Source of the DNA: Candidatus Pacearchaeota archaeon
GTDB lineage: Archaea > Nanobdellota > Nanobdellia > Pacearchaeales > GW2011-AR1
DNA: 64,000 nt
Assembly (NCBI GenBank): GCA_018221305.1
Contig: JAAOYK010000056.1
Location: 26,863-90,862 of the forward strand
Reading direction: 5' to 3'
The notes below the pieces were generated by a model. It ran no database searches, had not been told where the DNA came from, and saw only the letters and a list, made by a program, of their open reading frames with translations. Below, in pieces: positions 4,172 to 58,026 of this stretch. Each line of letters starts with the position of its first letter. Within the stretch, counting starts at the first letter, position 1. Made by a program: the position numbers and the translations under genes.

Positions 4172-4244
4172 GCCCCGATAGTGCAGCGGCCAAGCATCCA
4201 GCCTTCTCAAGGCTGTGACCCGGGTTCGAATCCCGGTCGGGGCA
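4172..4244 (+). tRNA. tRNA-Glu (anticodon CTC)
   Basis: Acceptor GCCCCGA/TCGGGGC, anticodon stem CAGCC/GGCTG with loop TTCTCAA, T-arm CCGGGTTCGAATCCCGG. Only 6 nt after tRNA-Gln, so probably co-transcribed. Confidence 0.8.
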
Positions 4245-4364
4245 CTTTTTATCAAAGATAAAATATAGTAATAATAACAAGCCCATATGTAGAGGCTAAG
4301 AACTATTTCTTAGAGTATAGTACAAAACCTATTTATTTAAAAGATAAAAACAATTTCATCTGAA

Positions 4365-47541: not shown

Positions 47542-48180
47542 ATGGAATCTGGGAATCGGTATTCTGGTTCAGGGGGATCTGGAAGATCTAATCGAGGAAA
47601 TGGTAATTCTAGGTTTGGTTCTAATCGTTTTAATTCTAACCGTTCTAATAGCAATGGGTATAATGGTAATAGGTCTAACGGTAACTCTGTTAATGGTAAT
47701 CGGAAAGCTGATCGGCCCCCGAGGTCTAGGGGCTCTTCTGATACGCTTTTAAATCAGATTGTAACCTTTAGGATTGATAGTCATGTAAAATCCCGTTGGA
47801 GATTTGTGCCTTATGCTCAGGGGAAAACTTTCCCAGTACTTTTAGGGGATGTCCCTGATGAGCTTCATGTTGGGGACCAGTTTAATACAATTATTGCAAA
47901 AAGAAAACAAAGTTCTATTGAAGGAAAAACACATAAGACTCCGCACAGAACGTTTCAATTACGCGAAAATGGTTATATTGGTCATATGATTTATGATGAT
48001 TCTATGAATGTGTCAAATACTAAAACACTTGATAGAAAATATGTAAGGCAGAACTTGGTTTATCGGGTCGAAGTTGTCCAAGCCCCTAGTAGTTTTGATG
48101 TGTTTAAATTTCGGCCTCTTAGTTTTATTTCTCGCACGGATTCTCTTATTAATTGTCACTATCAGGCAAAGGATGATTAA
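47542..48180 (+). CDS. protein with an N-terminal G/S/N/R-rich low-complexity region and a C-terminal globular domain
   Basis: SGSGGSGRSNRGNGNSRFGSNRFNSNRSNSNGYNGNRSNGNSVNGNRKADRPPRSRGSS, then a 140-aa domain with no recognised motif. Confidence 0.4.
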   Translation: MESGNRYSGSGGSGRSNRGNGNSRFGSNRFNSNRSNSNGYNGNRSNGNSVNGNRKADRPPRSRGSSDTLLNQIVTFRIDSHVKSRWRFVPYAQGKTFPVLLGDVPDELHVGDQFNTIIAKRKQSSIEGKTHKTPHRTFQLRENGYIGHMIYDDSMNVSNTKTLDRKYVRQNLVYRVEVVQAPSSFDVFKFRPLSFISRTDSLINCHYQAKDD

Positions 48181-49316
48181 TTTTTATAACTTTTAATAAA
48201 ATCTTTTTTAAATTTAGAAAATGTGTTTGATTTGATATGCCCTCGTGCCTGTTGTATTATATTTGTTAAGAAGAAAAGGTTATGATATGAAGCAAGTTCT
48301 TTTCCAATGGGTTCTTGTTCACGAAGTAAAAATCTAATGTAAGCTCTTGTATAATTCTGACAAACAAAGCAATCGCATTTCTTGTCTATTGGATCTTTTG
48401 AATGTTCATATTTTTTGTTAAGAAGCTTGAGTGGGCCAATGCTAGTGAAAAGGGTTCCACGTCTTGCGTTTTGGGTCGGAAGACGAGAGTCAAACATGTC
48501 AACGCCTAAACCAATGGCTTCTAAGATTTCTATTGGAGAACCAATGCCCATTAAATAAATTGGTTTGTTTTCAGGTAAAATTGATTTCTGTAGTTTTACT
48601 ATTTTCATTTCTTCTTTCCAAGATTCGCCTAATCCAAAACCTCCGATTGAGTATCCATCAAAATTTAGTTTTGCTAAATCTTTTATTGATTGTTCTCGTA
48701 AATCTGGATGTATTCCTCCTTGAGTTATGCCAAAAAGTAATTGCTGCCTATTTTTTGGTTTTAATTTTTGTAGCTTGCTATGATGAATTTTGCATCTTTG
48801 TGCCCAAAGTGTTGTAAGTCTTACTGCTTCTTTTATTGAAGTTTTACTTTCTTCATACATTGGCATAGAATCCAGACACATTGCGATGTCACTATTTATT
48901 GCTAATTGTATTTCCATGTTTTTTTCAGGGGTCATAAAAATCTTGTCACCATTTTTTGGATTTTTAAAATGAACTCCAATGTCATTTGATTTTAGATATA
49001 TAGATTCACTGTACATTTGAAAACCTCCAGAATCTGTCACATTTATTCCATGAAAGTTCATAAATTTTCTAATTCCACCAAGTTTTTTTATTAATTTTTC
49101 TCCTGGGTTTAAATGAAGAATTAATGCATTGGAAATTATTACATTTGCTCCTATTTCTTTTAGCTGGGGGGTGTTAATGAATTTTGCTGCAGCTTTGGTT
49201 GCTACTGGCATAAAAAACGGTGTTTTGACTGTTCCAGACTTTGTGTGAAGCAGGCCTGTTCTTGCTTTTGTTTTTGAATCAGTGTGTGTTATTTGAAATA
49301 CTTTTTGACTTTCCAT
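48177..49316 (-). CDS. tgt: tRNA-guanine transglycosylase catalytic core (archaeosine-type in an archaeon), no PUA domain
   Basis: ARTGLLHTKSGTVKTPFFMPVAT, TDSGGFQ and the zinc site CDCFVCQNYTRAYIRFL. 379 aa. Confidence 0.8.
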   Translation of the reverse strand: MESQKVFQITHTDSKTKARTGLLHTKSGTVKTPFFMPVATKAAAKFINTPQLKEIGANVIISNALILHLNPGEKLIKKLGGIRKFMNFHGINVTDSGGFQMYSESIYLKSNDIGVHFKNPKNGDKIFMTPEKNMEIQLAINSDIAMCLDSMPMYEESKTSIKEAVRLTTLWAQRCKIHHSKLQKLKPKNRQQLLFGITQGGIHPDLREQSIKDLAKLNFDGYSIGGFGLGESWKEEMKIVKLQKSILPENKPIYLMGIGSPIEILEAIGLGVDMFDSRLPTQNARRGTLFTSIGPLKLLNKKYEHSKDPIDKKCDCFVCQNYTRAYIRFLLREQEPIGKELASYHNLFFLTNIIQQARGHIKSNTFSKFKKDFIKSYKN

Positions 49317-51550: not shown

Positions 51551-51581
51551 GAGTATTAGTTTCTTTTAAACAAACTAATCT

Positions 51582-51654
51582 GCCCCTGTAGTGCAGCGGC
51601 CAAGCATCCGGCCCTTTCGAGGCCGTGACCCGGGTTCGAATCCCGGCAGGGGCA
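51582..51654 (+). tRNA. tRNA-Glu (anticodon TTC); putative integration target (attL)
   Basis: Acceptor GCCCCTG/CAGGGGC, anticodon stem CGGCC/GGCCG with loop CTTTCGA, T-arm CCGGGTTCGAATCCCGG. Its 3' end cggcaggggcat is repeated at 59397-59408. Confidence 0.8.
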
Positions 51655-51731
51655 TGTCTATATTATGATTAAAAAGTGGGACTCGGAATTTGTATAGAAA
51701 ATACTAAAAAGTACTAATTCTCTAATAAGCT

Positions 51732-52346
51732 ATGGCTTTTAATTGTGAAGTTTGTAAAGAAGAAATAACCGAAAAAGAAAATAATTATTCTACAAAAAAC
51801 TGCGGAAGACCATTATGCAGGAAACATCAGCATACTAAAAATAACAGCATGTCAAAAAAAGATATGTATTCTAAAGAAAATATGATTAAAGGAAGGATCG
51901 CTGAAACTTTAATCGAAGAACTCTTTCTTTATTTAGGATATAATGTATTCAGATATGGTATGGAAAATACAGTTCCGGGGGTCATGGGCTTATTAAAGGG
52001 AGTAAGAAGCGATGTTGCAGATAATATAAGACGTATGCCAGATTTTGTTATACAAAGCAATAGTGGAGAAAACAAAGGGGAAGTATATTTTATTGAAGTG
52101 AAATTTAGAGCAAGTGAAGAATTTTCAATAAAAAACCTACCAAAAAATTATCCTTTTGAAAATTGCTATTTTATTCTTGTTTCAAAAAAACATATCAAAT
52201 GCATTTCCTACAAAGAACTTCAAGCTGGAAAAGTGATCAGTCCAAAATCTCAAAATTATCTTGGAAGCCGAAAAGAATTTGCATTAGATAAAAAGGTTAT
52301 AATCGAATTTTGTAATTTTGCAGTTAAGTTTTTTGAGAATGTTTAA
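51732..52346 (+). CDS. N-terminal zinc ribbon fused to a PD-(D/E)xK (restriction-endonuclease-fold) nuclease-like domain
   Basis: CEVCKEE...CGRPLC ribbon. Core AETLIEELF...MPDFVIQSNSGENKGEVYFIEVKFR supplies E, PD and E-V-K in canonical order. Confidence 0.45.
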   Translation: MAFNCEVCKEEITEKENNYSTKNCGRPLCRKHQHTKNNSMSKKDMYSKENMIKGRIAETLIEELFLYLGYNVFRYGMENTVPGVMGLLKGVRSDVADNIRRMPDFVIQSNSGENKGEVYFIEVKFRASEEFSIKNLPKNYPFENCYFILVSKKHIKCISYKELQAGKVISPKSQNYLGSRKEFALDKKVIIEFCNFAVKFFENV

Positions 52347-52384
52347 AAATTCATAAGAATTTAGAGGTTTATTAAGAAAAAACA

Positions 52385-53254
52385 CTAGGCAGTAATTAAT
52401 TCTTTTTTAGAGATCATAAAATTTATCTGGGGTTTCGGCTTTACAAATAATTTAGAAGTTTGAGTATCGTATAATTTTTTTGTTCCATATTTTATATGAT
52501 ATTTAATTCCTCTTTTTTTACAAAAATTCTCAACAATCTTTGCACATCTTTCATAAAATTCTTCATTCTTGTTAAATGCACTACTCTTAACATTATAATT
52601 TAATTTACCAAAGATTATATTATTAACAAAAGAGATCTCATTCAGTAATTTGATTAATGCTTGAAATGGATTTTTTTCTTTACTAATGTTTGGAGTAGGA
52701 TAAGGTTCCATACTAACCCAAGTTTTTAGTCCGGCTTTATGTAATCTTTTTAGAGATTTAATTCTTCCACGATAAGGGGCACTATTTGGTTCAAACCGAT
52801 TTTTAAATTCTTTATTTAAAGATACTAAGGTAATCCCATATTCATTATTCCTACTATATTTTTTAATATCCTTTAGATTTGTAGGATATATTCCTTTGGT
52901 TAAAACAGTACATTTAATCCCATTAACATTTAATTTATTAATTATTTTCAAAGTCATATCAGTAACTTCAGGATATTTATACATAAATGGATCTGTAGTA
53001 AAACACAAATGAACAAATTTTATTTCATCCTTATATTTTGGAATTTCTTTATCTAAAAGTTCTAATGCATTTTTAACAAGTTTTGGTTGTTTCCACCCTT
53101 CAAAAGATTTAACTTTTCCAAATCTTCTTGCCATATTATATGCATAACAAGGGAATGTGCATCCATGAGAACAACCTTCAACATGATTTATACAAAAGTC
53201 TGCATACTCAACCTTACTCTTATACAATAAGCTCTTTCTAGTAACTTTCTTCAT
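52385..53254 (-). CDS. three-Cys-motif radical-SAM-like / phage Gp37-Gp68 (DUF5131)-like protein, the expected partner of TcmP
   Basis: N-terminal YADFCINHVEGCSHGCTFPCYAYNMA has a clustered Cys motif ending in CYA, as in Gp37/Gp68 and SplB-type proteins. 289 aa. Abuts the tcmP-like gene on the same strand. Confidence 0.4.
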   Translation of the reverse strand: MKKVTRKSLLYKSKVEYADFCINHVEGCSHGCTFPCYAYNMARRFGKVKSFEGWKQPKLVKNALELLDKEIPKYKDEIKFVHLCFTTDPFMYKYPEVTDMTLKIINKLNVNGIKCTVLTKGIYPTNLKDIKKYSRNNEYGITLVSLNKEFKNRFEPNSAPYRGRIKSLKRLHKAGLKTWVSMEPYPTPNISKEKNPFQALIKLLNEISFVNNIIFGKLNYNVKSSAFNKNEEFYERCAKIVENFCKKRGIKYHIKYGTKKLYDTQTSKLFVKPKPQINFMISKKELITA

Positions 53255-53293
53255 TTTTCACCTTTTTATATGAATATAATGGAAGCCTCATTT

Positions 53294-54418
53294 TTATATG
53301 TTGTTATTTAAATTGTTAAAATCGATAATTGTTTTTCCCGGAGGAAATACGCCCCTTCTATTCTGCCCATTTCTCTCAACAGAAATCTTTTTATCTTCTT
53401 CCATTTCAGTAAGAACAACCCTAGCATGTTTATCTAAAAAAGATGTTTTAACAAGTACGTAGTCGAATACTTCTTCAACATCTACTTTCTTAAATTTAAA
53501 TTCTTCAACAATTTCTTTTTGCAACCGATTATAATCCGGTTCATTAGAGAATAAAACTGATTGATTGGGATTGTAGGTAAAATCCGAAAAAGTAAATTCT
53601 CCACTATCATCTACAGACCACATAGCTTCCTTCATTTTTTTTAATCCCAATTTATTCTTTGTGACAAAAAAAAGAACATAATCTTTCTTATTGAATTTAT
53701 TAACCATATCAAATGTTCTAATATAACATTCCCCTTCGCAAGAATTACGTAATTGTTTTTCGTATAAAGATACTAAAAATAAATATCTTTCTTTCGGTGT
53801 TTTATAATTATGAACTTCTTTCCATTTAGATTCTTCTCCAAATAAAGCGCATACATTTTTTTTATTTTGAGGAAGAGAAATAAATCGAATTAATTCCTCG
53901 TACATAAAGTTAATGAGTACTTCACAAGACTTTTTATTCATCATACGACTAATAGTATTCAAGGATAATCCTTTAATACCAAAAGGATCTATGAAGCAAA
54001 AAGTAGGAGCTATATTCTTATTATCTTTCTCTAATTCATTAAGAATATTATTAACCACTGTTTCAAATTCTGCATTGATTGTTTTTATCTTAAGATTTTC
54101 TTTAGAATAGCTTTTTAATTTTTCATTTAAATATTCTATTACTTTCTTTTCCTTATCTACAAAAATAAAACTTACTTCCTTTATTCTTTCTTTTAGTGAA
54201 TGTTCTAAATAACAATCAATTGCTATTATTGGTGAACCTTTAACTTTTTCACCTTTTTTAGTAAGATATTCTCCAGGTCCAGCAAAACCATCAAGATAAA
54301 TTATCCTCTTATTAGTTGAAGATAAAATAGCCATCCAAGGTTGAAGATACTTTCGAAGAATTTCATGTTTAGCAGAAGTATGGGGGTCAATTAGCCAAGG
54401 AATTTTTTTGATTTCCAT
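53294..54418 (-). CDS. tcmP: three-Cys-motif partner protein (TcmP)-like protein
   Basis: N-terminus WLIDPHTSAKHEILRKYLQPWMAIL and IIYLDGFAGPGEY (SAM/nucleotide-binding-like DxFxGxG) fit my recollection of the TcmP family. Size (374 aa) and adjacency to a three-Cys protein match the described pairing. Confidence 0.45.
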   Translation of the reverse strand: MEIKKIPWLIDPHTSAKHEILRKYLQPWMAILSSTNKRIIYLDGFAGPGEYLTKKGEKVKGSPIIAIDCYLEHSLKERIKEVSFIFVDKEKKVIEYLNEKLKSYSKENLKIKTINAEFETVVNNILNELEKDNKNIAPTFCFIDPFGIKGLSLNTISRMMNKKSCEVLINFMYEELIRFISLPQNKKNVCALFGEESKWKEVHNYKTPKERYLFLVSLYEKQLRNSCEGECYIRTFDMVNKFNKKDYVLFFVTKNKLGLKKMKEAMWSVDDSGEFTFSDFTYNPNQSVLFSNEPDYNRLQKEIVEEFKFKKVDVEEVFDYVLVKTSFLDKHARVVLTEMEEDKKISVERNGQNRRGVFPPGKTIIDFNNLNNNI

Positions 54419-54621
54419 AAATTTTTAGAACAAATATTCTTTATAAACCCCACTCTAAAACAAGGATAAATAATAAGCTATTTTTATCTTTTCCCCCTTA
54501 GCCCCCTTTCCCCCCATAGTATCTATGTATGTTTATACATATATACAGAGCACGATTTAGTGACTCTTTTGAGGCATCCCAACGTCGATGAAACTCCTTT
54601 TACACCCTAAAAATCTGGGTG

Positions 54622-55674
54622 TTAGATTTTCATTAATTTTTTAAGCTTTTTTCGCATATCTCTCCGTTGGGTGCACAATCCAAATTTTGAATATGCTTTA
54701 TATAAATCTCTATTAGAAACTACAATCATCCATCTTCTCCCATACCTATTTTTTAAAAATTCTATTTTATCCTTTAATTGTTTCTTTTTTCTTAATAAAC
54801 TGCCTGTTTCAACCTCTATTGCATATTTTTTAGATCTTATCTTAAATGTTATATCTGCATCTCGAGTATCATGATCTATTATTTTTTCAGTTTCTAAACA
54901 CTCTAATAATAATTGTTTGACATTCCAAACAAGAAAGGTGTGAGTTGCAGAATGATTTAAAATTTGCTTCACCAATACAGGAATTATTTTATTTTCGAGA
55001 ATACAATATTCATTAACTTGAGAAAATCCTTCTTCTTTCAAAACTTCAATCTCTTTTTCAGATAAATCCTCTTTTTTGAAAACTTTTTTATCATGTATAT
55101 CTAAATCTTCTTCTATTTTTTGTTTTATGTCCCTTTGTTTTGCTTCTAGATCTCTTTTTTCTCCTTCTAATTCAGAAACCTTTTTTTCTAATTCATAATT
55201 TTTTTCATAAATCTTTTCTAATTTTTCTTTATTTTTTGTTTTTATAAGAACTGCTTCTGCCTCTTTTACTTTTTTCTTAATTTCATTTTTATAATTCCAA
55301 AACCTAGATTCCAGAAACTTATCAGATCCTAGTTCCTCAATAAAACTCTCTAATTCTTTAGAGGTTAAGTATTCAAGATCTTTGTTAAGATATTTCTCGA
55401 CATATTCTTTATCTTGTTTTATTTTCTTTTTTCTCTCTTCTTTTTGTTTTGCAATCTTAAGGAGATAAACATGTAATTTATAATTAAGATAAATAAGAGT
55501 AATTAGGAAAATACAAATCATAACTAACTGAAAAATTAAGTTATGAATAAGATTGTTTAAACGCCCTGGAATTTTAGGGATTTCTTGTATTATTCCCATA
55601 ATAGCTTCATAGACCACATATCTTAGAAAAAGAAAAAATAAAATTGCAAGGATAACAAATTCATCTTGCTCCAT
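54622..55674 (-). CDS. membrane-anchored long coiled-coil protein with a C-terminal PD-(D/E)xK-like nuclease domain
   Basis: Two N-terminal TM helices and ~150 aa of E/K heptads. C-terminus has HSATHTFLVWN...IIDHDTRDADITFKIRSKKYAIEVETGS, a D...D...E.E arrangement. Confidence 0.35.
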   Translation of the reverse strand: MEQDEFVILAILFFLFLRYVVYEAIMGIIQEIPKIPGRLNNLIHNLIFQLVMICIFLITLIYLNYKLHVYLLKIAKQKEERKKKIKQDKEYVEKYLNKDLEYLTSKELESFIEELGSDKFLESRFWNYKNEIKKKVKEAEAVLIKTKNKEKLEKIYEKNYELEKKVSELEGEKRDLEAKQRDIKQKIEEDLDIHDKKVFKKEDLSEKEIEVLKEEGFSQVNEYCILENKIIPVLVKQILNHSATHTFLVWNVKQLLLECLETEKIIDHDTRDADITFKIRSKKYAIEVETGSLLRKKKQLKDKIEFLKNRYGRRWMIVVSNRDLYKAYSKFGLCTQRRDMRKKLKKLMKI

Positions 55675-55676
55675 CC

Positions 55677-56846
55677 CTACTCCTTCACCATCCTTTCCAT
55701 TTTTAATACATACATACCAATAGTTTTCATTTGGCTTTTTAGGATATCTATTTCATTTTGCATAGAACTAACTTCTTCTTTTAAAATATCATTTTTATTT
55801 TCAGCCTTTACTAATCTCTTCTCAATCTCTGTTTTTGTTAAATCCATTAACATATCTTCCTCACTTATTGTATCACGCATCCCTAACATTTCGCTGTAAT
55901 AATGGATTTTATCTGATTTTTTCCAGCCAAATCTAAATTTTAGGGCAGATTCGGATTTATATCTTAATAACCAATAACAGCAACTGCAGTGCCTAAAATC
56001 ATACATTGTTAAATCTGAATATTTCTGTCCTGCAGGACTTTTCTCATCCCCTAAGATTCTTTTCCCTAATCTCTTCAGATAATTATTAACACTATAAGGA
56101 TTAATAGGAAATAGTTGATCATTTGGTTTTAAGTCCTTAACTTTAACATATTTTTTAATTAAATCAGAGCATAGCATTAACTTAATTTTCCTTCCAAAAG
56201 TTTTAGAAATTTCTTCTTTAATGTTCAATTCTTTAAAATCGTTTGATAGGTCTGAAACTCTTAAATTAACTAATTCGGTAGGACTTCTAATTCCTGTATC
56301 AAATAAAAACATAATTAAAATACTATATTCATATTTTGCTTCATCGCATAATTGCTTAATTTGTTCTTCTGTTAAATAAACCCATTCGGGTTTATCTCCC
56401 GTTGTATCTAAATATTGAGTTATGTCTGGAAGAGTTTGTCCTTCTTTATTCTTAATTTTTTGATACCAGTGCCAAAAAGCTTTATAGATTTTAGCATAAT
56501 CTCTAATGCTCTTGTATCTTTCACCATCCTGCCTTTTAACCTCTCCATTTCTCATGGCAGTAAAAAAAGAACATAGCTCATTTTCGCTTATTTCTGTTAA
56601 ATTTTTATTAAATTTAGTTTTAAAGTGCTTTGCTAAGAAAACCATACGATTTCTTAACGTGTTAAGCCGTGTGTAGCTTCTTGCCCCTTTTTTGTTAGAC
56701 ATAGAGATGTTTATGCCAAGTTCCATATCTTTTAGATATTGAAGAATTATCTCTGAATTTTCTTTAGACAAATCAGGGATTTGTCCCTGTATTAATTTTT
56801 TCCATCTCAAATACTTTTCTTTATTCTTATATGGATCGATCTTCAT
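55677..56846 (-). CDS. tyrosine recombinase / integrase
   Basis: Box I FLFDTGIRSPTELVNLRVSDL (catalytic Arg), box II YDFRHCSCCYWLL (R-H), then KIHYYSEMLG (candidate nucleophilic Tyr). N-terminal SAM-like core-binding region. Sits inside the tRNA-bounded element. Confidence 0.7.
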   Translation of the reverse strand: MKIDPYKNKEKYLRWKKLIQGQIPDLSKENSEIILQYLKDMELGINISMSNKKGARSYTRLNTLRNRMVFLAKHFKTKFNKNLTEISENELCSFFTAMRNGEVKRQDGERYKSIRDYAKIYKAFWHWYQKIKNKEGQTLPDITQYLDTTGDKPEWVYLTEEQIKQLCDEAKYEYSILIMFLFDTGIRSPTELVNLRVSDLSNDFKELNIKEEISKTFGRKIKLMLCSDLIKKYVKVKDLKPNDQLFPINPYSVNNYLKRLGKRILGDEKSPAGQKYSDLTMYDFRHCSCCYWLLRYKSESALKFRFGWKKSDKIHYYSEMLGMRDTISEEDMLMDLTKTEIEKRLVKAENKNDILKEEVSSMQNEIDILKSQMKTIGMYVLKMERMVKE

Positions 56847-56932
56847 CTTATTAGTCGTGTGTGTCTAGATGGAGCTTATTTTTAAATCTTGTCGAGAAGG
56901 AAAGGATGCGATGGGAGTGGTGGAAGAAGGGT

Positions 56933-57904
56933 TTATTTTTTAAGAAAGGGAAGGGTATTAGCTTCTTGTTCTCCTTCAATAAGTAATACATCAAGATTAG
57001 AAAATTCATTCTCTCCAAATAGCTCCTTTAACTTATCTATTTGACTTCTTAATTCAAATTCATTTTTATGAAATAATTGAATAAAACAATTCGGTTTAGA
57101 CATGGTCAAAAAAAGTGAATTAACAAATTGGGAAGATCTCGCAAAATTTTTTATTTTAGCTTGATTTTCTATAGATAAATTATTGAATTCCAAAGAAATT
57201 ATGGAAAAGAAGTATCCCAATCTTTTCATATCGAATAAAATTCTAGAGCCAAGAATAACTTTCTTTTGATACAACTTTTTTAATTTATATAAAACTAGTT
57301 CTGCAGAAAGATTTATTTTTTTAGCTATATCTATTATTTTAATTCTTCCATCTTCTTCTAAAATCCTTAGTATTTCTAATTCTTTTTGATCTAATTTAAT
57401 CTTCTTTGATTTTTCAGTTATTTCAATGCTCTCCTCCTTTTTATTTTTAAGGAATTTAAGGGGATATTTTTCAATAAAAAAAGGCTTTAAAATCAAATAA
57501 TCTAAAATTAAGCCTTTATCCCTGCCTAGAATGAAATTAAGAGAATCTCTAAAATCTTTCTCATCTTTAAAAATAAGATTCAAAAAGAGATCATATTTAT
57601 TAAAAACAGCCCCACTAGAGATACAATGTTTACTTTGCTTGAACTCTTTTTCAAAAGCCTTAATTTTCTCCTTATCTGAAAATTTTAAGAATAAGATAAC
57701 TAAATAATTATAACCTAAAGATTCATAATTAAAAAACGTTGCAAATTTCTTGATTATGCCTTTTTCCAAGTACTTTTTTATTTTATAGTCTACTTGTTCT
57801 CTAGATAATTTCGTTTCCTTAGCTATTTTTGTTAAAGACTCCCGATTATTGTGATACAAATATGAAATGAGTTTTATATCTAACGGTTTAAGAGATTTTT
57901 CCAT
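56933..57904 (-). CDS. tandem Lrp/AsnC-like regulator (paralogue of 35326..36291)
   Basis: Two Lrp-type HTH repeats (LDIKLISYLYHNNRESLTKIAKETKLSREQVDYKIKKYLEKGII and LDQKELEILRILEEDGRIKIIDIAKKINLSAELVLYKLKKLYQKKVI). Confidence 0.5.
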   Translation of the reverse strand: MEKSLKPLDIKLISYLYHNNRESLTKIAKETKLSREQVDYKIKKYLEKGIIKKFATFFNYESLGYNYLVILFLKFSDKEKIKAFEKEFKQSKHCISSGAVFNKYDLFLNLIFKDEKDFRDSLNFILGRDKGLILDYLILKPFFIEKYPLKFLKNKKEESIEITEKSKKIKLDQKELEILRILEEDGRIKIIDIAKKINLSAELVLYKLKKLYQKKVILGSRILFDMKRLGYFFSIISLEFNNLSIENQAKIKNFARSSQFVNSLFLTMSKPNCFIQLFHKNEFELRSQIDKLKELFGENEFSNLDVLLIEGEQEANTLPFLKK

Positions 57905-58026
57905 ATTTTTAATGTATATTTTTAGTATATAAAATTATCTATTAAATAAAGATTAAACTAAATTTATTTCTTTTATTCGTATTTTACCTAAGAATACTTT
58001 AAATATCTTTTAAATATAAGTCAATT

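Follow-up and report, generated by a model that had tools for sequence, protein, structure and literature searches.

A TcmP-family protein and a photoproduct-lyase-like radical SAM enzyme as a candidate two-enzyme DNA modification pair on an integrative island of a Pacearchaeota archaeon

The window analysed here, a stretch of 64,000 nt from a contig of a Candidatus Pacearchaeota archaeon, contains two neighbouring genes that a sequence-only reading had singled out. Both open reading frames are present on the minus strand, together with the motifs named in that reading: WLIDPHTSAKHEILRKYL and DGFAGPG in the upstream product and GCSHGCTFPCYAY (residues 27–39) in the downstream one. The upstream gene, tcmP, and the radical SAM gene that follows it form one operon (Table 1), and their products very probably act as one complex on DNA. 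Upstream of tcmP, the box TTTATAAA can be read as a putative archaeal promoter, from which a leaderless operon transcript might start. A 2.8-kb block of 84% DNA identity is shared with another contig, L001, and one of its edges falls exactly at this TATA-like box, at position 54447. A convergent gene for a 204-aa protein also lies inside this shared block.

Table 1 Features of the tcmP–radical SAM locus and its island, in window coordinates
Feature	Position	Strand	Basis and remarks
Integrative island: regulator, integrase, 350-aa gene, tcmP, radical SAM gene	52347..58000		GC content and synteny break; ~6 kb, borders approximate
Radical SAM enzyme, 289 aa, SPL / DUF5131 / PA0069 clade	52385..53254	(-)	Same operon, 39 nt downstream of tcmP
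Predicted [4Fe-4S] loop C28-SHG-C32-TFP-C36-Y-A, Cx3Cx3C	53141..53173	(-)	Between β1 and α1 of the barrel (model)
tcmP, 374-aa three-Cys-motif partner protein	53294..54418	(-)	N-terminal class-I SAM methyltransferase domain and C-terminal winged helix
Winged helix-turn-helix (wHTH), TcmP C-terminus, ~residues 285-366	53321..53566	(-)	PF22560 GMT-wHTH, 34.2 bits vs 27; model topology H-E-H-H-E-E
TcmP methyltransferase domain, residues 1-280	53579..54418	(-)	Seven-stranded Rossmann core with N-terminal 'motif X' helix (model)
Catalytic motif IV DPFG, TcmP residues 144-147, after β4	53978..53989	(-)	Counterpart of RlmJ 164-DPPY-167; invariant in alignment A3
SAM-binding motif I DGFAGPG, TcmP residues 43-49, end of β1	54272..54292	(-)	Aligns with RlmJ YLDTHAGAGRY
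N-terminal block WLIDPHTSAKHEILRKYL, TcmP residues 8-25, counterpart of RlmJ motif X, with invariant K17	54344..54397	(-)	Alignment A3 and pairwise motif comparison
TATA-like box TTTATAAA, putative archaeal promoter	54440..54447	(-)	Read from sequence; centre ~26 nt upstream of the tcmP ATG
350-aa protein: N-terminal membrane segment, coiled coil, conserved C-terminal domain	54622..55674	(-)	Element core gene, integrase-linked
Tyrosine recombinase (integrase)	55677..56846	(-)	phrog_1 integrase, 66 bits; NF040815 XerA-type, 45.6 bits, below its cutoff
Regulator with two HTH domains (AsnC/MarR-type), far end of the island	56933..57904	(-)	PF13412, 55.5 bits; PF13404, 50.9 bits; GC 24-27%

The pair is cargo of an integrase-bearing, low-GC island and forms a horizontally mobile, self-contained module; the GC content of the island is 24–30%, against 31–36% in the flanks. 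It had been described beforehand as cargo of an integrative element in a DPANN-like archaeon, which agrees with the integrase, with the low GC content and with full (100%) identity between one window protein and a protein of Candidatus Pacearchaeota. The integrase shares 27% identity (E 1e-19) with the one that occupies the corresponding site of a further contig, L107, where it is followed by a homologue of the 350-aa gene (61% identity over the C-terminal part) and where this homologous gene pair carries different cargo. In L001, a 95-aa remnant of the 350-aa gene (47% identity) lies upstream of tcmP. No Pfam family was found for the 350-aa protein, and we rejected its gene as a part of the module since it travels with the integrase. 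Attachment sites were sought in two ways: the 3′ end of the tRNA-Glu gene, with up to three mismatches, matched only the adjacent tRNA-Glu itself and another tRNA-Glu, and no convincing direct repeats were found to bracket 52.3–58.0 kb, the scan of 51.0–60.5 kb returning short AT-rich chance pairs.

The 204-aa gene was considered as a third (nuclease) component and rejected as well. Its product has 1,915 homologues, 62–100% identical, across DPANN, which marks it as a DPANN-wide chromosomal gene; in L107 and L108 it is followed by other content and the pair is absent beside it. It is, moreover, unrelated to the third genes found elsewhere, and its matches to PD-(D/E)xK nucleases stay at E ~0.07. 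An action on DNA had earlier been read from PD-(D/E)xK domains in the flanks, an argument that has to be given up, as the nuclease assignment is sub-threshold and both flanking genes lie outside the module.

The upstream product belongs to the TcmP family, as had been supposed, with 212.1 bits on TIGR04474 (E 1.3e-62; curated cutoff 53; profile positions 1–262 of 263) and more than 2,000 homologues in the database search. TIGR04474 is defined by sequence and neighbourhood only, with no function attached, and its name leads one to expect an adjacent three-Cys protein, an expectation that the window pair fits. Apart from the wHTH, a Pfam scan of TcmP gave no match. The structure model displays the methyltransferase-like Rossmann fold that had been anticipated, with predicted strands β1 (38–44), β2 (81–88), β3 (110–115), β4 (139–143), β5 (165–172), β6 (232–240) and β7 (245–253). 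In alignment A3, the invariant residues are H13, T14, K17, D43, G47, G49, S62, D144, P145, F146 and G147, and among 120 homologues the DGFAGPG motif occurs in 117 and DPFG in 119.

A fold search returned RlmJ and Trm1, both RNA-acting, as the closest structural relatives of TcmP. The elements of an RlmJ-like fold, namely the motif-X helix, motif I, the GSP loop and the Asp-Pro motif IV, are all present in the model. The RlmJ residues K18, H19, S100, E118 and D164 bind SAM or are essential, D164 being among the essential ones (PMC3814359), and their TcmP counterparts K17, H18, S62, E/D88 and D144 are invariant or near-invariant. Judged from the model and these motifs, TcmP is a complete RlmJ-type SAM-dependent methyltransferase, with the catalytic Asp, the motif-X Lys and the SAM-contacting Ser/Glu/Asp, and is predicted to transfer a methyl group. 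Methyl transfer stays a prediction because motif IV reads DPFG, whereas characterised N6-adenine enzymes have DPPY/F, a difference that weighs against it. Trm1 may likewise carry a DPFG motif, of which no evidential use is made here. Compared with RlmJ/YhiR (the 23S rRNA m6A2030 methyltransferase; PDB 6qe5, homologue 2oo3), TcmP lacks the helical subdomain and adds the C-terminal wHTH, and while RlmJ acts alone on rRNA, TcmP is paired.

The relationship between TcmP and RlmJ rests on the fold search and the correspondence of motifs. Membership of TcmP in the RlmJ sequence family was rejected, since Pfam/HMM, PDB profile and hhalign comparisons all lacked a family-level match. RlmJ was not among the PDB matches of the TcmP profile, single-protein and profile searches of the PDB gave no significant match for either protein of the pair, and hhalign of the TcmP profile against Escherichia coli RlmJ returned a 21-column local match at motif I (E 0.011, probability 3.9%).

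The downstream product matches PF04055 (Radical_SAM) with 49.6 bits, against a gathering threshold of 29.5, over residues 22–181, and has more than 6,000 homologues in the database search. It is modelled as a partial (β/α) TIM barrel with the Cys loop after β1, and its best structural match is spore photoproduct lyase (SPL; SplB, PDB 4fhc); the profile match, the SPL-like model and the three Cys together uphold the earlier view of a SplB-type radical-SAM-like protein. A fold search against viral structures gave generic radical SAM matches only. C28, C32 and C36 are conserved in all 51 diverse full-length representatives of the partner, which removes the objection, raised in advance, that the Cys residues might not be conserved in homologues; every other Cys varies, C84 being conserved in only 35 of the 51. 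For both proteins, the profile scores, the numbers of homologues and the invariance of the three Cys lie well outside what chance would produce. The three should hold the predicted [4Fe-4S] cluster that cleaves SAM. Their spacing is C-x3-C-x3-C rather than the canonical radical SAM C-x3-C-x2-C, so that the canonical motif is absent. Cx3Cx3C-YA occurs in all 120 nearest homologues and Cx3Cx2C, within the first 80 residues, in none; a set of 50 more distant full-length relatives divides into 34 with x3/x3 and 16 with x3/x2 spacing. Given this distribution, the loop is a one-residue insertion variant. A literature search for a Cx3Cx3C radical SAM motif found no example, and we know of no demonstration of SAM cleavage with such a loop. 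Y37, directly after the third Cys, is invariant in the representatives and is presumably the counterpart of the SPL Tyr that follows the Cys motif.

Besides its Cx3Cx3C loop, where SPL has Cx3Cx2C, the partner differs from SPL in being ~50 residues shorter and only 15% identical. The SPL family models (PF20903/TIGR04070) are not among its profile matches, and a search of its profile against the PDB reaches SPL only at E 0.07. The sequence-only reading had also likened it to the phage Gp37/Gp68 proteins, and this part did not hold: as a member of PF07505 (DUF5131) it was rejected, scoring 23.4 bits against a threshold of 28.9 over the N-terminal 110 residues only, whereas genuine DUF5131 proteins paired with other TcmPs reach 316–345 bits. 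Its loop, G-C-x3-C-x3-C-Y-A, contrasts with G-C-x6-C-x2-C-Y-A in DUF5131 (CTKVSPGCxxCY in the DUF5131 partners), and it passes PF04055, for which the typical DUF5131 proteins examined have no listed match. The two are nevertheless homologous over ~200 columns, with the three Cys, LTK(G/R) and S-x-EP aligned (hhalign probability 84%, E 8e-6). On these profiles and alignments, the window partner is a distant homologue of DUF5131 and not a member.

That the two genes form a conserved pair was borne out by the neighbourhood survey: in all 17 independent loci of the window partner class, tcmP is the gene immediately upstream and has the same orientation, and a three-Cys partner adjoins TcmP in 70 of 93 loci overall. 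Across these 93 loci, DUF5131 is the commonest partner class (47), followed by the window class (14) and the SPL family PF20903 (9). TcmP pairs with three interchangeable and mutually homologous partner classes of the lyase clade, which is new here. Two natural TcmP::radical SAM fusion proteins (P0364 and P0365) were also found, both of them metagenome gene calls for which a sequencing or calling artefact is conceivable. The literature searched held no earlier account of the TcmP fold assignment, the partner-class census or the fusions, and no demonstrated function or experiment for TcmP, its partners, DUF5131 or PDC-M30, in keeping with the earlier statement that the pair has no characterised function. 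In loci of the window class, mean identity is 64% for the radical SAM partner, 43% for TcmP and 37% for the TcmP wHTH, the pattern expected if TcmP carries the target specificity; within TcmP, the wHTH is the most variable part (37% mean pairwise identity vs 45% for the N-terminal domain).

The pair had been thought unusual in DPANN, a view contradicted by the nearest 120 of the more than 6,000 partner homologues, which are 66–88% identical and for the most part derive from metagenomes of Pacearchaeota, Nanoarchaeota and CPR. DPANN archaea and CPR bacteria commonly carry the pair, and the window instance is an ordinary family member. With the patterns used, 325 matches were obtained among 185,579 species genomes, in unrelated phyla, and the pair is present in 15 viral or proviral contigs. 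No conserved third gene emerged from an all-against-all comparison of the flanks of 17 loci, nor when 142 proteins encoded in the flanks of 37 loci were scanned with Pfam and PADLOC. Because a conserved nuclease or other third gene is missing, the pair does not qualify as a classical restriction-modification system. In the 37 loci, the DNA methylase N6_N4_Mtase was the family met most often in the flanks, and ResIII, AAA_5 and phage-repressor-like genes were also found; many of the flanking genes are housekeeping genes, and defence genes are modestly enriched.

The reading that we put forward, tentatively, is that the two proteins work on nucleic acid as a complex, with double-stranded DNA the likeliest target, to install or process a covalent base modification. 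TcmP would recognise a site, flip out a purine or cytosine and methylate, or at least hold, its exocyclic amine. The [4Fe-4S] cluster of the radical SAM partner would cleave a second SAM, and the resulting 5′-deoxyadenosyl radical would allow radical chemistry at the base handled by TcmP or at one next to it; abstraction of H from the new methyl or from a neighbouring pyrimidine, for example, could yield a hypermodified base, C-C-linked or of another kind. The product would probably serve as a DNA mark for self/non-self discrimination, either in defence or in shielding the mobile element from restriction. That DNA is the substrate, like the sequence, the chemistry and the role of the two reactions, we infer from the catalytic residues of TcmP, the gene linkage and fusions, the exchange of partners within one clade, the differences in evolutionary rate and the mobility and context of the module; the housekeeping nature of many flanking genes and the lack of a conserved third gene weaken this reading. 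A step on a DNA base is made plausible by radical SAM precedents, SPL and gp53 of phage M6. The latter takes part in thymidine hypermodification, post-replicatively and as one step of a multi-enzyme pathway whose starting point is 5-hydroxymethyl-dU and which relies on kinases and PLP enzymes, all of them absent from the window pair; gp53 is cited as a chemical precedent only, with no claim of kinship in sequence or neighbourhood.

Part of the same evidence could be accommodated by a DNA repair module, in which the SPL-like enzyme would reverse a bulky or cross-linked lesion that TcmP finds and presents, with SAM perhaps a structural or regulatory ligand. Not only is SPL the closest structure to the partner, but true SPL-family proteins are the partners in nine TcmP loci, LexA/SOS regulons include the nearest named radical SAM families (Rv2578c and PA0069), the flanks repeatedly contain LexA/Peptidase_S24 and Y-family polymerase genes, and partner-type proteins carry the JGI label 'DNA repair photolyase'. 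We nonetheless consider repair unlikely, as it leaves unexplained the full catalytic motif set of a methyltransferase in TcmP, the fast evolution of its DNA-binding end and the patchy, horizontally transferred spread on integrase islands and at prophage ends, and as the window partner reaches no SPL family model. It is quite improbable, in our estimate, that the pair is an anti-virus effector without host marking, the radical SAM enzyme altering invading nucleic acid or the nucleotide pool in a viperin-like manner and TcmP acting as a sensor or targeting subunit. TcmP does match PADLOC PDC-M30A over its full length (205 bits), with the two-gene architecture of PDC-M30, a system found more often in Pseudomonas strains resistant to phage (68.8% of 32 strains), and AIPR, KAP NTPase, AAA_21, GmrSD and type I/ISP restriction genes occur in the neighbourhoods. 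Against this, PDC-M30 is a candidate, non-validated 'guilt-by-embedding' defence system in PADLOC, the defence-gene enrichment in the flank survey is modest, and the window partner, a Cx3Cx3C radical SAM protein of another class than the DUF5131-like M30B, reaches only 22 bits on the latter, over its N-terminal 110 residues. Viral contigs carry the pair too, and counter-defence would suit this at least equally well.

The RNA substrates of RlmJ and Trm1, the closest structures to TcmP, weaken the DNA reading and raise a further alternative, in which TcmP would methylate an rRNA or tRNA purine and the partner would add a second modification in the manner of RlmN, Cfr or TYW1. The very strong conservation of the partner (64–88% identity) and the position of the pair beside EF-1alpha, GatD and primase genes in two DPANN genomes would suit such an activity. 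A core RNA-modification enzyme would not, however, be expected to show so sparse a distribution over unrelated phyla (the 325 matches above) or to be carried by integrase islands and prophages; the clade of the partner (SPL, DUF5131 and the SOS-regulated PA0069/Rv2578c) is linked to DNA, and the RlmJ active site has been described as nearer to those of DNA m6A than of RNA methyltransferases (PMC3814359). We regard RNA modification as having only a slight probability.

Returning to DNA modification, a bolder form of that reading, which we consider conceivable though rather doubtful, is that TcmP and its lyase-clade partners are the machinery for an undescribed DNA hypermodification, in which site-specific N-methylation (or base capture) by TcmP would come first and a radical SAM step would then produce a rearranged or C-C-bonded adduct. 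The outcome would be the first radical-SAM-dependent epigenetic mark for self/non-self discrimination, with three interchangeable radical enzymes, in DPANN, CPR, many soil bacteria and their viruses.

The TcmP/three-Cys pair has thousands of members in bacteria, archaea and proviruses, and was hitherto an annotation name and an untested defence candidate. It can now be described, from models and motifs, as a complete RlmJ-like methyltransferase with a DNA-binding-type domain and, as its constant partner, a radical enzyme of the photoproduct lyase clade, the two being sometimes fused to each other, which yields a concrete and cheaply testable hypothesis of a two-step, SAM-consuming DNA modification. 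If true, it would add new chemistry to prokaryotic epigenetics and to virus-host conflict, and would bear on how SMRT and nanopore data are read for DPANN and CPR, organisms with few recognised defence systems.

The 374 aa protein belongs to the TcmP (three-Cys-motif partner protein) family, as the sequence-only reading had claimed, with 212.1 bits against TIGR04474 (cutoff 53), and both stretches quoted for it, the N-terminal block WLIDPHTSAKHEILRKYL (residues 8–25) and the putative nucleotide-binding DGFAGPG (residues 43–49), were confirmed. The PADLOC model PDC-M30A covers its full length (205 bits), and its Pfam match is restricted to the C-terminal end (PF22560 'GMT-like wHTH', 34.2 bits vs 27). 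A short spacer of 39 nt, with GGTGA just 5′ of the second ATG, separates tcmP from the gene of its radical SAM partner, and the two would form a two-gene operon with a putative archaeal-type promoter of its own at a TATA-like element.

Positions of the tcmP operon, other window genes and genes of comparison contigs L001 and L107
Feature	Contig	Position	Strand	Remark
tcmP, 374 aa	window	53294..54418	-	ORF
rSAM partner, 289 aa	window	52385..53254	-	ORF
TATA-like TTTATAAA	window	54440..54447	-	~26 nt 5′ of tcmP ATG
350 aa protein gene	window	54622..55674	-	membrane segment, long coiled coil, conserved C-terminal domain (DADITF...YAIEVETG)
350 aa homologue	L107	9483..10526		after integrase
95 aa remnant of 350 aa gene	L001	7567..7854		
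204 aa protein gene	window	51732..52346	+	N-terminal CxxC...C Zn-ribbon-like segment; D...E-x-K-like core
tRNA-Glu (UUC)	window	51581..51655	+	77 nt 5′ of 204 aa gene, ~0.7 kb from island
tRNA-Glu (CUC)	window	4172..4245	+	
Tgt	window	48177..49316	-	
212 aa protein gene	window	47542..48180	+	
Apyc1-like gene	L001	15154..15915	-	metallo-beta-lactamase fold

An AlphaFold2 model of TcmP (41 homologues as input; pLDDT 85.9, pTM 0.84) bore out the proposed Rossmann methyltransferase fold, predicting a seven-strand class I core (strands 38–44, 81–88, 110–115, 139–143 and 165–172 and hairpin 232–240/245–253) preceded by a long N-terminal helix (12–35) and followed by a winged helix (H-E-H-H-E-E, ~296–366). 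Its structural relatives were the Legionella RlmJ homologue LPL1258 (PDB 2oo3, score 16.7), Escherichia coli RlmJ (6qe5, 16.4) and Trm1 (2dul, 13.9); sequence searches of the PDB with TcmP and the partner gave no significant match. Compared with RlmJ of E. coli MG1655, TcmP has YLDGFAGPGEY for YLDTHAGAGRY at motif I, GSPIIA for GSPLIA and FIDPFG for LIDPPY, and both share an N-terminal H...KH helix. In RlmJ, K18 and D164 are essential, and H19, S100, E118 and D143 contact SAM (PMC3814359). Among their TcmP counterparts, K17, S62 and D144 are invariant across the homologue alignment, with conservation above 90% at H18 and E/D88; DGFAGPG-like motifs occur in 117 and DPFG in 119 of 120 homologues. 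Given these RlmJ-like motifs and conserved catalytic counterparts, TcmP is predicted to be an active enzyme on the exocyclic amine of a flipped base. Membership of the RlmJ sequence family was ruled out (no HMM match; an hhalign match of 21 columns only). By its model and motifs, TcmP is a full methyltransferase of RlmJ type that also carries a winged helix.

The partner, a radical SAM enzyme resembling photoproduct lyase, has an unusual Cys spacing. Its assignment to the radical SAM proteins held (PF04055, 49.6 bits vs 29.5), and its supposed Gp37/Gp68 membership failed (PF07505 DUF5131, 23.4 bits vs 28.9). A match of 88.5 bits was found to phrog_13321, a phage family without annotation, and hits to the Rv2578c, PA0069 and 'mobile pair B' radical SAM models fell far under their cutoffs. 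The clustered-Cys block was recovered as GCSHGCTFPCYAY (residues 27–39), and its Cys loop (27–36) leads from strand 1 into helix 1 of the modelled barrel, the cluster-binding place of radical SAM enzymes. C-x3-C-x3-C-Y-A is shared by the 120 closest homologues without exception, and the canonical C-x3-C-x2-C was found in none of them. C28, C32 and C36 are present in 51/51 diverse full-length representatives, with no other Cys invariant. In the 50 representatives other than the window protein, the spacing is x3/x3 in 34 and x3/x2 in 16, a mixture which argues that the family includes a one-residue (Pro) insertion variant of the motif. No functional Cx3Cx3C radical SAM motif was reported in the literature searched, the two apparent mentions being a mis-statement and an unrelated peptide.

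The two proteins are obligately paired, and TcmP can exchange its partner inside one clade. In all 17 independent loci having the window's partner class, tcmP lies directly 5′ on the same strand. When the 93 TcmP loci collected from species genomes and from viral contigs were classed by their adjacent three-Cys protein, 47 had a DUF5131-type partner (Cx6Cx2C), 14 the window's class (Cx3Cx3C) and 9 a canonical Cx3Cx2C partner; for the other 23 none was seen by crude gene calling on partly short contigs. Spot checks gave 316–345 bits to PF07505 for DUF5131-type partners, and canonical ones passed PF20903 'SPL' (spore photoproduct lyase). Homology between the window's class and the DUF5131 partners was shown by profile–profile comparison (probability 84%, E 8e-6; ~200 columns), which places the three Cys of both in register.

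An exhaustive representative search returned 2,254 relatives at E<=1e-3 (123 at E<=1e-30), including two TcmP::rSAM fusions in operon order, P0364 (634 aa; TIGR04474 170.7 bits) and P0365 (592 aa; 109.9 bits), each with the radical SAM domain C-terminal. These fusions, which are metagenomic gene calls, offer Rosetta-stone evidence for a putative physical complex. The winged helix is seemingly missing from P0365; other relatives differ in their N-terminal extensions (e.g. P0362, 1,002 aa), and in P0394 a sigma-70-like region follows the radical SAM domain on its C-terminal side. The two proteins differ in evolutionary rate: pairwise identity averages 64% in the radical enzyme, 43% in TcmP and 37% in its winged helix, as expected if target specificity resided in TcmP.

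The host is archaeal; the window encodes archaeal PheRS alpha and beta, an archaeal-type GluRS and Elp3. Its tRNA-guanine transglycosylase (Tgt) matches the bacterial queuosine type (TIGR00430, 408.6 bits vs 306.75) and reaches 148 bits as archaeosine TgtA (cutoff 350), which is unexpected for an archaeal genome. The 212 aa protein has a Gly/Ser/Asn/Arg-rich low-complexity stretch in its first ~60 residues (SGSGGSGRSNRGNGNSRFGSNRFNSNRSNSNGYNGNRSNG...) and no family, with a weak DpnII-MboI-like match in the tail only (E 0.12).

The description of the pair as cargo of an integrative element was upheld by a low-GC stretch (24–30% at 52.3–58.0 kb vs 31–36% outside; window ~31%), by the gene order in element orientation (HTH regulator, integrase, 350 aa gene, tcmP, rSAM) and by an island in L107 with different cargo, an integrase homologous to the window's (27% identity, E 1e-19) and a homologue of the 350 aa gene. 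Searches with the tRNA-Glu 3′ end and for direct repeats found no att repeats around the island. The 350 aa protein has no family assignment; in two distinct DPANN islands its gene comes after the integrase, and it may belong to the core of this element family. L001 shares window positions 51689..54447 at 84% DNA identity, covering the 204 aa gene and the operon and beginning at the TATA box; it looks like a decayed copy, since a remnant of the 350 aa gene is kept and the integrase is absent. The L001 Apyc1-like gene, which matches the anti-Pycsar Apyc1 family, lies in a variable region also holding MazE/ParE and DNA methylase genes.

The flanking genes proved irrelevant to the pair, contrary to the sequence-only reading. 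The 204 aa gene, rejected as a module component, occurs without the pair in a housekeeping context in comparison contig L108 and beside a different island in L107, and its TnsA_N/VRR_NUC matches are sub-threshold (E ~0.07). The protein is unannotated and highly conserved throughout DPANN, and a Candidatus Pacearchaeota homologue matches it with 100% identity; among the best 120 of its 1,915 homologues (62–100% identical), those with a named source are from DPANN lineages. In two genomes this gene adjoins integrase islands, which makes its position a possible hotspot of integration. The 3′ halves of the two window tRNA-Glu genes are nearly identical, and no tRNA was found in the place equivalent to tRNA-Glu (UUC) in L107, L001 or L108.

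DPANN and CPR assemblies commonly contain the pair, which is also scattered across many bacterial phyla, so its presence in a DPANN genome, taken earlier as unusual, is not. TcmP was also found on 15 viral or proviral contigs, often near the contig end. Across 142 flanking proteins of 37 loci there was no conserved third gene; DNA methylases (6/142) were among the commonest families, with S24/LexA-like repressors, HTH_3, ResIII and AAA_5, and housekeeping genes were intermixed. The flanks included four LexA/Peptidase_S24, two LexA_DNA_bind and two impB/mucB/samB Y-family polymerase proteins. These neighbours, and the LexA/SOS regulation of Rv2578c and PA0069, the nearest named radical SAM families, hint that the wider clade may be connected with the DNA-damage response.

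We tentatively favour a reading of the pair as a DNA base-marking complex for self/non-self discrimination. It builds on a full methyltransferase active site joined, in the model, to a variable winged helix, on a radical SAM enzyme of the lyase clade in which three Cys and no others are invariant, and on a pair that is strictly adjacent, sometimes fused and horizontally mobile. The complex would assemble on double-stranded DNA, where TcmP would pick the site, flip a base and methylate or hold it; the radical SAM enzyme would make a 5′-deoxyadenosyl radical for a second step on the same base or a neighbour, yielding a non-canonical mark that would serve self/non-self discrimination. The mobile-element context of the pair points to DNA as substrate, as do the DNA-linked partner clade (SPL acting on DNA, SOS-regulated Rv2578c and PA0069), the RlmJ active site, likened to that of DNA m6A methyltransferases (PMC3814359), and phage M6 gp53, which sets a precedent for radical SAM chemistry in DNA hypermodification. 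Repair of DNA lesions is unlikely, a defence effector that leaves self DNA unmarked is somewhat less probable again, and modification of RNA is the least probable role we considered.

The pair belongs to an annotated, functionally blank kind, 'TcmP + three-Cys partner', for which no function-assigning paper was found in the literature searched, in agreement with the sequence-only reading. In outline that identification stands; Gp37/Gp68 membership, rarity in DPANN and relevance of the flanking genes do not. PADLOC's candidate defence system PDC-M30 is a relative, but its partner class differs, and the window's own pair is an ordinary instance of the family. The fold assignments, partner census, fusions and rate asymmetry provide a concrete basis for experiments, and the TcmP family is a good target for finding new nucleic-acid modification.
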